DNA from: a virus
Taxonomy: Duplodnaviria > Heunggongvirae > Uroviricota > Caudoviricetes
Strand: one strand, 5' to 3'
Length of the DNA stretch: 62,656 nt
Virus record (IMG/VR): IMGVR_UViG_637000105_000002
Position 1 is the first letter of the stretch; each line of letters opens with the position of its first letter. This document shows positions 9,001 through 12,000 of the stretch, piece after piece. The position numbers are program-made.

Positions 9001-12000
9001 AGGGCGGTAGTTAAATGCGAAAGTTTAAAATAATTATTGAAACGGGAATAGCCGGTGGAGATTTCGAGGATGAATTCGAAGTGGATGATGATGCGACGCC
9101 TGATGAAATACATGACGAAGCAAAAGATATTTTCTTTAACTACTGCAATTACTCATATCACGAAATAAAAGACGAAGAGGAAGAACAAAATGGCTGATTT
9201 TGGTTCAACTAAATACAACGTCAGTTTTGAAGAATGGCATGAACTGTTAATGGACTATGCAGAGTTACGTGGTGGCAGTGCTGCTGATGCTGAAGCATGG
9301 CGTGATGATTATGAAGCAGAAAAAACTCCGGTCGAAGCATATTGTGATGAGTGGGGCGATGAATGAGCGAGGTTAATTATCAGGAAGGGCATGAAACGGC
9401 GGGGCAAGCAAAAACAGTGGCATGGCGATATCGCTACGTGAAAAAAAAGGCGTTACGGACTTTCAGGGGAAGTAGTGGTCTGGTGACTGGAAATATGTAC
9501 CGAAAAAAGAGGATTGTAACGACAGGCCGAACTATGAAATTCAGGCCTTATTCACTGCCCCGCCAGTCCCGGTTACATCAGAAGAACTGGTTAAAGCTGT
9601 GCACTTTTATGAACAACTAAAACGCGAAAATCCACCAGCATCCGGAAACCTGATTACAGATTCCCAGATAAGGCAATGAGCTACCTGGCGCAGAACGGGC
9701 TGATAAGTATGGGGAATGTTTTACGATGAATATTTAGACTAAAGAGTTTGTAACGCTATGTAAGTGATTTTTTCTGGTTTAGATATTTATATATCCGGCC
9801 AAATTGAGGTGTGTTTAAATGTAATTGCACATTGATTGTAGGAGGAATAATGAAAAACGCATTGCAGTTTTTGTTTGTTGCGTTCTGGTTGTTCGTATCA
9901 TGTATGCCCATCATCTTCACAGCAAGGTATATGGAAAAAGTTGATGTTTTGATATTAATATTTGGATATATAAATGCCCTTTTTTTAGGGGTGTTCATGG
10001 CGGTCATGTGCATTGAATACTGGCGGTAAATACAGCGAACGCCATTGGTTTAGTTGGATATTTACTGTGCCGGACAAAAACGGTTTGCGGGGAAATCTTA
10101 GTTAAGTAGAATGACTGCGGGTGCTTGAGGCTATCTGTCTCAGGCATGAACACCAAAAGGCAGATAGAGAAAAGCCCCAGTTAACATTACGCGTCCTGCA
10201 AGACGCTTAACATTAATCTGAGGCCATATCTATGCGACACATAGAGATTAGCCTCTTACGGACCGAAAGGTCAAGGAGAAGCAGGCTATGAAGCAGCAAA
10301 AGGCGATGTTAATCGCCCTGATCGTCATCTGTTTAACCGTCATAGTGACGGCACTGGTAACGAGGAAAGACCTCTGCGAGGTACGAATCCGAACCGGCCA
10401 GACGGAGGTCGCTGTCTTCACAGCTTACGAACCTGAGGAGTAAGAGACCTGGCGGGGGAGAAATCCCTCGCCACCTCTGATGTGTCAGGCATCCTCAATG
10501 CACCCGCACTTAACCCGCTTCGGCGGGTTTATTTTATCTGTAAATATTTTTATAAAAATAATGCCCACACACAGCATAAAACAAAAAGTATCACAGATAA
10601 AAAAGGAGCGTAATGTGCAGATTTGTTGTTTTCCATATTTACTCACTTTAACATAATCAATATTGATATGGTTGTTGTTTCGGTGGTTTCAAACGAGATG
10701 TTATGGTGATCTGGTAAAATTGCATAACATTAAAATTTAATTTATCTAATCGCTTTTAATAATAAGCGTTGTGTTTATCCCAACAATCTGTTGTTTGACT
10801 TTTATTCCATTAATGTAGGGGCTTTACACTGGAACCAGTTTATTTATACTTTATACGCCAGCCTGAACAACTGGCACCTGCTGCGCCAGCAGAGACAACC
10901 GATGGCGCACGATACCAAATTACACAATTCTGATGATTCTGCCGTCTTTGCCAGCAGGTGCGGACGGCGTTTTCATGCATTCAAATCGGACTGGTTCCAG
11001 CATCCACCATGCACTGAAGAGCAGGCTGAATGGATAATTCAGTGTTACCGCAGGCGCGGATACGAGGTTAAAAAAGCCCTTAGCCTCGACTACCGTCACT
11101 GGATAATCTCAGTCAGATTGCCTTACTCCGAACGCCCACCGCGTCCGTCCCGCACATTCCAGCAACGCATCTGGAGGTAACGTGCGGGTATTACTTCGAC
11201 CTGTTCTGGTACCGGAACTCGGGCTGGTGATCGTTAAGCCGGGCCGTGAATCCATGCCGGTATTCCACAATACCCGGTTACTGGTGGAGCCGGAACCGAA
11301 AAGCATGCGTAATCTGCCGTCCGGGGTCGTTCCTGCCGCTCGCCAGCCGCTGGTGGAAGACAAAACATTGCTGCCGTTTTTCAGTAACGCACGGGTGATT
11401 CGTGCTGCTGGTGGTGCTGGTGCATTGTCTGACTGGCTGTTGCGCCATATTAAATCCTGCCAGTGGCCACACGGCGATTATCATCACAGCGAAACCGTCA
11501 TTCACCGTTATGGTACCGGCGCAATGGTGTTGTGCTGGCACTGCGACAACCAGCTGCGTGACCAGACATCCGAATCACTCGAGCAACTTGCTCATCAAAA
11601 CCTGTCAGCATGGATGATTGACGTCATCGGTCACGCAATAAGCGGTACGCAGGAGCGTGAATTATCTCTGGCTGAATTATCCTGGTGGGCGGTCCGCAAT
11701 CAGGTGGCGGACGCGCTACCGGAAGCGGTATTACGTCGTTCGCTGGGGTTGCGTGCGGAAAAAATCCGCTCAATGTACCGTGAAAGCGACATCGTACCGG
11801 GAGAGCAGACCGCCACCAGCATACTGAAACAGCGCACAAAAAATCTTACGCCGCTGCTTCACGCCCACCAGCAACAGAACCCACCACAGGAAAAGACGGT
11901 GGTCAGCATTGCCGTTGATCCTGAGTCTCCGGAATCTTTCATGAAACGACCTAAACGTCGCCGCTGGGTTAACGAGAAATACACACGCTGGGTGAAGACA

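Follow-up and report, generated by a model that had tools for sequence, protein, structure and literature searches.

The DNA analysed here, a stretch of 62,656 nucleotides from IMG/VR virus record IMGVR_UViG_637000105_000002 (Caudoviricetes; hereafter the window, to which all coordinates refer unless another record is named), is part of a Qin/Rac-like lambdoid prophage in Escherichia coli CFT073 according to the RefSeq annotation by the Prokaryotic Genome Annotation Pipeline (PGAP). Two short open reading frames (ORFs) follow one another on the plus strand, in a region of 1.1 kb that is 100% identical to the chromosome of CFT073 and to several other extraintestinal pathogenic E. coli strains. 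The upstream frame, ORF59 (9850–10029), codes for a 59-amino-acid predicted two-helix membrane protein and carries a Shine-Dalgarno (SD) sequence, AGGAGG (9840–9845), 4 nt before its ATG. The downstream frame, hok (10288–10443, SD AGGAG at 10274–10278), codes for a 51-amino-acid membrane toxin and is annotated by PGAP as hokD. The organization of the sequence around hok as a type I hok/sok locus and the standing of ORF59 are the subjects of this report.

An initial annotation, made from the sequence alone, had proposed a Hok-family toxin of 51 amino acids at this position and had named a disrupted hok frame as one finding that would speak against it. Such a disruption was looked for, and the frame is intact from 10288 to 10443. 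The translated ORF matches Pfam family PF01848 (HOK_GEF) with an E value of 1.2e-23 and 82.9 bits (cut-off 22), covering profile positions 1–42 of 42, as well as PHROG 251 ("MokW-like host killing") with an E value of 2.8e-33, and all 51 of its 51 residues are identical to those of HokD/RelF from E. coli K-12. With a length of about 50 amino acids, an N-terminal transmembrane helix and the conserved C-terminal region, it displays the features by which the Hok/Gef family is defined. The HokD/RelF protein of K-12, which has the same sequence, is toxic when overexpressed. Codon 47 of hok is TAC followed by G (TACG, 10426–10429), a motif noted by inspection of the sequence alone; TACG is the reported context of adenosine-to-inosine editing by TadA, which changes tyrosine to cysteine in hokB, hokC, hokD, and hokE (bioRxiv 10.1101/2025.08.07.668861).

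The leader preceding hok (10119–10290) is matched by Rfam family RF01794 over the full model (1–157) with 106.7 bits (gathering score 59) and an E value of 1.2e-24, so that the Rfam search for hok/sok elements suggested in the initial annotation found its target at the leader. Although RF01794 is named "sok antitoxin", the match marks the hok leader and not the Sok RNA strand: because it lies on the hok-sense strand and extends from GGGUGCUUGAGG, which corresponds to the 5′ end of the mRNA, to the hok AUG, the family in effect models the hok leader. A putative hok promoter (10084–10112), composed of a −35 element TTTGCG (10084–10089), a 17-nt spacer, and a −10 element TAGAAT (10107–10112), ends 7 nt upstream of the predicted transcript start at 10119 and is conserved in alignments with the alleles of phage 933W and of vB_EcoS-640R1. 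At the other end of the locus, a terminator scan detects an intrinsic hok mRNA terminator (10512–10536), in which a hairpin with a 7-bp stem including five G-C pairs (10512–10529) is followed by a T-run. The start of the Rfam match and this terminator delimit a predicted full-length mok-hok mRNA of about 418 nt (10119–10536).

The minimum free energy (MFE) fold of the 418-nt mRNA has a ΔG of −173 kcal/mol and a z-score of −8.0, and none of 100 shuffled sequences (0/100) is as stable. Both the MFE and the centroid fold of the full-length molecule are closed by a helix between its two ends. The 5′ fold-back partner is the tac element GGGTGCTTGAGG (10119–10130), invariant in the aligned alleles, and the 3′ partner is the fbi element CCTCAATGCACCC (10493–10505); GGGUGCUUGAGG pairs with CCUCAAUGCACCC over 12 bp interrupted by one bulge. 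The 3′ fold-back noticed in the initial annotation is thereby confirmed as a tac/fbi helix. Within the same closed MFE fold, the mok SD (GAGG, 10220–10223) is paired to CCCC at 10175–10178, which is assigned as a ucb-like anti-SD element by analogy with plasmid R1 (PMC9841398). When the last 45 nt of the mRNA are removed, the 5′ end refolds in the MFE prediction as a local hairpin resembling the metastable hairpin described for R1.

The mok frame of this allele is short. It comprises 19 codons (MRHIEISLLRTERSRRSRL, 10232–10291), as supported by alignment to mokW and by a survey of alleles, and its UGA stop (10289–10291) overlaps the hok AUG by 4 nt (AUGA). The overlapping mok-like frame proposed earlier is therefore present, with its ATG at 10232, but it is a 19-codon frame with a 4-nt overlap and not one that overlaps hok over a long distance. 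Relative to 933W, the shift in frame results from a 2-nt deletion just past the mok ATG combined with one extra nucleotide in the hok SD hairpin, and no alternative mok start exists in the remaining two frames of the sequence. The short mok is not a private lesion of CFT073, because it is the commonest allele among the IMG/VR loci fetched, occurs on two leader backgrounds, and is found in 814 E. coli complete-genome records (about 15%) when the 91-nt allele segment is required to be at least 99% identical. In E. coli ECMA0423 (locus L087, 1351–1950), which carries a divergent ORF59–hok segment encoding an unchanged Hok protein, the tac element has been lost from the hok leader through a 6-nt deletion, and a mok of 68 codons is read in the third frame; all three mok frames thus occur among the alleles. 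Mutagenesis of the R1 system has shown that translation of mok is needed up to the hok SD and is dispensable past the hok start codon, the Mok peptide itself being of no importance (PMC9841398). The 19-codon mok fits this result, because translation past the hok start is dispensable, and the comparison indicates that a frame of this length would be compatible with function. The 13–15 nt that follow the mok ATG (10235–10249) are hypervariable, with at least five versions among hokD-type alleles that are otherwise 91–100% identical. Since the 5′ tail of Sok is complementary to these nucleotides, their variation suggests that Sok and its target may form allele-specific pairs.

The Sok antisense RNA is predicted on the minus strand (10168–10238) with a length of about 71 nt; its 5′ tail, which is complementary to the region where mok starts, is followed by a long hairpin and a U-tract. 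The minus strand from 10243 to 10166 folds as an interrupted hairpin of 23 bp between a short 5′ segment and CUUUUCUCU, with a z-score of −5.55. Alignment with 933W puts the ends of the RNA at about 10238 (5′) and about 10168 (3′), which makes it co-linear with sokW as annotated there. A putative Sok promoter (10245–10274, minus strand) is composed of a −35 element TTGACC (10274–10269), an 18-nt spacer, and a −10 element TAATCT (10250–10245). Covariation was not found in the Sok hairpin, where two substitutions separate the alleles, neither of them compensatory; the structure is therefore supported by the Rfam model. Of the expectation that a Sok-like RNA should be encoded opposite the hok leader, the fold and the position equivalent to sokW are borne out, while its promoter is assigned by homology and position.

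Toxin identity, leader match, fold-back, Sok fold and position, and mok frame together form the basis for assigning positions 10084–10536, with high confidence, as a complete type I hok/sok cassette that belongs to the hokD/hokW lineage and forms a self-contained insert equipped with both a promoter and a terminator. As such, the hok/sok part of the locus is already known biology: hokD is annotated in RefSeq, the enrichment of hok in prophages has been published in a survey (bioRxiv 10.1101/2025.08.07.668861), and five hok genes have been reported in CFT073 by Faridani et al. (PMC1635323).

The hokW-mokW-sokW locus of 933W (AF125520), likewise borne by a lambdoid phage, shares about 91% DNA identity with the CFT073 locus over promoter, leader, hok, and 3′ fold-back and has the same order of elements and the same position of Sok on the opposite strand. 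Despite this relatedness, several differences exist. Whereas mokW, like the mok of several other alleles, is a 70-amino-acid in-frame N-terminal extension of Hok, mok of CFT073 is an upstream ORF of 19 codons owing to the −2/+1 indels. The 13–15 nt past the mok ATG, the target of the Sok 5′ tail, differ between the two, and the hairpin at the hok SD has changed from TGCC/GGCA in 933W to GACC/GGTC in CFT073 through compensating changes. The C-terminus of Hok reads TAYEPEE in CFT073 and VDYESEK in 933W, whose locus moreover lies at another position of the phage genome and lacks an upstream ORF59.

A different picture emerges from the comparison with hokD (relF) of the Qin prophage in K-12. Besides the identical toxin, the two loci share the hok SD, 3′ untranslated region, fbi, and terminator, and they have the same downstream neighborhood (a rem-like ORF, ydfU/DUF968, and Q). 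Homology to CFT073 starts only 16 nt before the hok ATG, from where it runs through fbi and the terminator; in place of the hok promoter, tac, mok, the Sok gene, and ORF59, K-12 carries relBE. Because the homology stops at relBE 16 nt before the hok ATG, K-12 hokD has lost its promoter, tac, mok, and sok, and CFT073 holds the complete locus, which is presumably the ancestral form. Plasmid R1 hok/sok (parB), the paradigm of type I toxin-antitoxin systems, was compared by the published description of its elements (PMC9841398, PMC1635323). Shared between the systems are a Hok/Gef toxin, a mok leader ORF, a Sok RNA with 5′ tail and hairpin (predicted in CFT073), the end-pairing of tac and fbi, and sequestration of the mok SD by an anti-SD. 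In contrast to the CFT073 locus, which resides in a chromosomal prophage and encodes a toxin of 51 amino acids and a mok of 19 codons, the R1 locus is plasmid-borne, its toxin has 52 amino acids and a divergent sequence, and its mok has 70 codons.

Modelled on the R1 paradigm, the cassette would operate as follows. A weak promoter would give rise to a stable mRNA of about 418 nt, in which tac/fbi pairing and the sequestered mok SD would prevent both translation and Sok binding. Slow trimming of the 3′ end would then take off fbi, whereupon the RNA would refold and expose the mok start region. As long as the cassette is present, the 5′ tail of the short-lived Sok RNA of about 71 nt would pair with the mok SD and start, blocking translation and targeting the duplex to RNase III. 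Once Sok synthesis ends, the 19-codon mok would be translated through the hok SD and terminate at AUGA, after which Hok would be translated. Finally, Hok would insert into the inner membrane and cause cell death. We infer the transcript ends, promoter activity, processing, killing, and stabilization of the prophage from homology.

ORF59 has a grand average of hydropathicity of 1.31 and contains two hydrophobic segments; AlphaFold2, run on the family alignment, predicts helices at residues 2–26 and 31–58, in agreement with these segments and with a moderate predicted local distance difference test score of 72.5. No family for it exists in Pfam, NCBIfam, or PHROGs, and full-text literature searches with peptide strings of ORF59 and its paralogue returned no match. 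The 331-bp segment is present in 1569 of 5426 complete E. coli genomes (about 30%), in none of which PGAP annotates ORF59. Close homologues all come from E. coli or Shigella, some of them frameshifted, and a scan of species-representative genomes turned up no more than three copies, two in Shigella and a frameshifted one in E. coli. An exhaustive HMMER search uncovered a paralogue of likewise 59 amino acids (P0043/P0037, "uncharacterized membrane protein"; entered in GenBank as hypothetical, e.g., AVV75372.1) with 41% identity over the full length, which a profile search showed to be widespread in E. coli, P0043 occurring on more than 1000 contigs. The two proteins align without gaps, with start and stop in register, and have W13, S17-C18, P20, T24, G39, N42-A43-L44, and E56-x-W58-R59 in common.

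The paralogue resides in a decayed prophage remnant, bordered by ttcA and an integrase fragment on one side and by a broken (frameshifted) sit permease, uspF, and ompN on the other (paralogue coordinates 5001–5180 in locus L097, 829–1008 in L094, and about 3100–3280 in L106). The remnant is found in 1044 of the 5426 complete E. coli genomes (about 19%), again without PGAP annotation of the paralogue. Like ORF59, the paralogue lies upstream of hok sequence, but all that adjoins it is a fragment of the 3′ half of hok, about 60 nt downstream. Members of both clades share an invariant S-C-x-P-I-I motif and a possible lipobox. Residues 14–18 of ORF59 (9889–9903) read L-F-V-S-C18 behind an N-terminus containing lysine, the paralogue has I-V-I-S-C18, and S17 and C18 are invariant in both; instead of a simple helical hairpin, ORF59 may thus encode a small lipoprotein.

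Whether the cassette acts as its structure would predict has to be weighed against several observations that speak the other way. In a scan for sigma-70 consensus promoters, the hok and Sok promoters both score below threshold, their function being assigned from position and homology, and the Sok −10 element TAATCT matches the consensus at only three of six positions. At the mok start, the loop is predicted to read CGACA, without the U that the 933W allele has in its loop. In the MFE fold of the 3′-truncated mRNA, the mok SD stays paired and the tac-ucb helix by which the R1 model describes the open form is not seen. Moreover, the chromosomal hok loci that have been tested, hokA, hokB, and hokC, are reported not to have mediated post-segregational killing (bioRxiv 10.1101/2025.08.07.668861). 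The cassette might accordingly be structurally complete but functionally inert or repurposed, be it as a silent relic, in abortive infection or phage exclusion, or in persistence. That hok is often destroyed in related loci points in this direction: about 25 of 80 IMG/VR loci, as well as PhiR42_1, show an insertion sequence (IS)-type cut at the start codon, one related locus (L021) is frameshifted, and K-12 is without the whole regulatory region. However, an intact locus that is active and costly would also be expected to suffer repeated inactivation in other strains, all regulatory elements of the CFT073 allele are intact and co-conserved, and the near-identity (at least 99%) of the allele segment in 814 complete-genome records is unexpected for a decaying relic. 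An inert or repurposed cassette is hence considered rather doubtful, and a complete cassette working along the lines of R1 is preferred. As to the cuts themselves, hok homology stops inside the start codon, directly after GGCTAT, and an element with an ISNCY-type transposase follows, whereas ORF59 and the leader/Sok region stay in place. This arrangement was found in PhiR42_1 (L004, about position 2588), in L055 and about 24 other IMG/VR loci, and in L092 (strain EC11), and is reminiscent of the IS-inactivated hok loci of K-12.

For ORF59, the question is whether it is a gene at all. Codons with T in second position specify hydrophobic amino acids, so that hydrophobic ORFs arise in T-rich DNA by themselves, and ORF59 could be a frame left open by chance in a T-rich and AT-rich spacer behind an SD-like sequence; 6.9% of shuffles of the 389-nt AT-rich region hold an ORF of at least 59 codons starting with ATG. 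The silence of PGAP and of the three family databases would be in keeping with such an origin. Three further observations count against a gene. Within the ORF59 clade, seven of the eight variable sites are non-synonymous and one is synonymous, a diversity too low to decide on selection, as is that of the paralogue clade (2 variable sites within the ORF, compared with 12 in its flanks). Frameshifted variants exist, among them the ECMA0423 copy with four frame-breaking indels and several truncated protein clusters. Finally, DNA conservation between the paralogues is no higher in the ORF (59% identity) than in the adjacent non-coding flanks. Yet these flanks need indels to be aligned between the clades, whereas the 59-codon frames align without a gap. 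Differences between the two number 25, 17, and 31 at codon positions 1, 2, and 3, the ratio of non-synonymous to synonymous substitution rates (dN/dS) is 0.23, with dS saturated, and the other two frames hold eight and five stops. In neutral simulations the ORF59 frame remains open in 2.8% of cases, and in 0.15% if start and stop are to be kept as well. The paralogue is, furthermore, intact in a remnant in which integrase, hok, and sit permease are all broken. An antisense ORF of 85 amino acids on the minus strand (9756–10013), which two phage records in GenBank list as "hornerin" or as a hypothetical protein, behaves differently: it acquires stops at 9776 and 9823 in natural variants, is absent from the paralogue, and has no family match. 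It was rejected as a shadow frame, its third codon positions coinciding with those of ORF59. A frame kept across diverged homologues, with signs of purifying selection, is what is seen in ORF59, albeit in two clades only, so that a chance ORF seems unlikely and ORF59 is probably a real small membrane protein gene, genuine and separate from hok. Of the hydrophobic 59-amino-acid protein with a strong ribosome binding site put forward in the initial annotation, the ORF, the AGGAGG, and the hydrophobicity were all found; nothing shows a role as a toxin.

A gene in this position invites the idea that it serves hok. ORF59 precedes the hok promoter and leader at a fixed distance in 80 of 80 IMG/VR loci and in six of six additional E. 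coli chromosomal loci, its divergent paralogue, too, stands upstream of a hok remnant, and ORF59 and Hok are both small inner-membrane proteins. It could thus be a functional partner of hok, acting as a modulator or protector against Hok or as a second small membrane toxin. In a broader version, ORF59 and the paralogue would constitute an unrecognized family of 59-amino-acid two-helix proteins tied functionally to hok through immunity to or modulation of Hok-type pore formation, or as a second membrane effector of the cassette, which, if true, would explain why ORF59 is always found just upstream of hok sequence and is intact after hok loss. Both proposals are regarded as improbable. The simplest account of the association is inheritance of a single ancestral ORF59–hok segment, in which case the linkage represents two lineages and not independent associations. 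The hok unit (about 10072–10534) occurs without ORF59 in many phages, plasmids, and about 3400 further E. coli genomes; conversely, ORF59 or the paralogue persists intact where hok has been destroyed, be it by ISNCY-type cuts or by truncation in the ttcA remnant. Over the ORF59 region (9750–10080), the searches gave neither an Rfam match nor a promoter or terminator that could belong to an antisense RNA. A functional partnership is, in sum, possible but unsupported, and common descent of the segment is the favored explanation.

The cassette is located in the early-right (nin-like) region of the prophage, surrounded by genes that all lie on the plus strand. According to PGAP, dicB, ydfA/B/C, a repressor pair, and replication genes are found to the left of hokD, followed by a DUF7167 gene and a pseudogene, while to the right lie an ORF of 92 amino acids, a DUF968 (YdfU-like) gene, RusA, antiterminator Q, IS200, tRNAs, and lysis genes. 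The initial annotation had placed toxin and membrane protein in one AT-rich island. With respect to the ORF59 segment (9730–10118, 36% guanine plus cytosine (GC)) and the right flank (10537–10901, 33% GC), this description is accurate, given a window mean of 50.6% and the fact that merely 1.8% of 300-nt windows have a GC content of 36% or less, but it does not hold for the hok transcript, whose GC content is 51%. The island thus consists of two AT-rich stretches, with a hok unit of ordinary base composition between them.

The right flank is a 365-nt non-coding spacer extending from the hok terminator to the next ORF (10902–11180, PHROG 1212) and contains two promoter-like sites (10630–10657 and 10823–10850) and a terminator-like hairpin (10751–10768); in K-12 and in strain LR-58-2, a rem gene lies near this position. 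Directly upstream of the left AT-rich segment, the gene at 9363–9729 is a pseudogene in CFT073 (frameshifted, with an internal stop, according to PGAP), of which strain CEA601S has an intact counterpart of 171 amino acids. Additional Rfam matches above the gathering score are the small RNA DicF, STnc490 (beside the IS200 transposase), STnc100, and three prophage tRNAs, for which coordinates are listed as 4505–4556 (minus strand), 13554–13677, 15237–15426, and 14291–14537. Matches to ceN48, ceN65, and rsmX fall below their gathering scores and were taken as chance, the rsmX match being the hok terminator.

The short mok of CFT073 may be seen as a natural counterpart of the mutagenesis finding that translation of mok suffices up to the hok start. 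Like many other strains, CFT073 keeps hokD with its promoter, mok, and sok, which makes this the right copy for studying hokD regulation. The ORF59 family is the only item at this locus with some novelty, being unannotated, apparently conserved, and situated beside hok. Absent from the RefSeq annotation in about 30% of E. coli genomes in the case of ORF59 and in about 19% in the case of its paralogue, this probable family of small membrane proteins deserves annotation.

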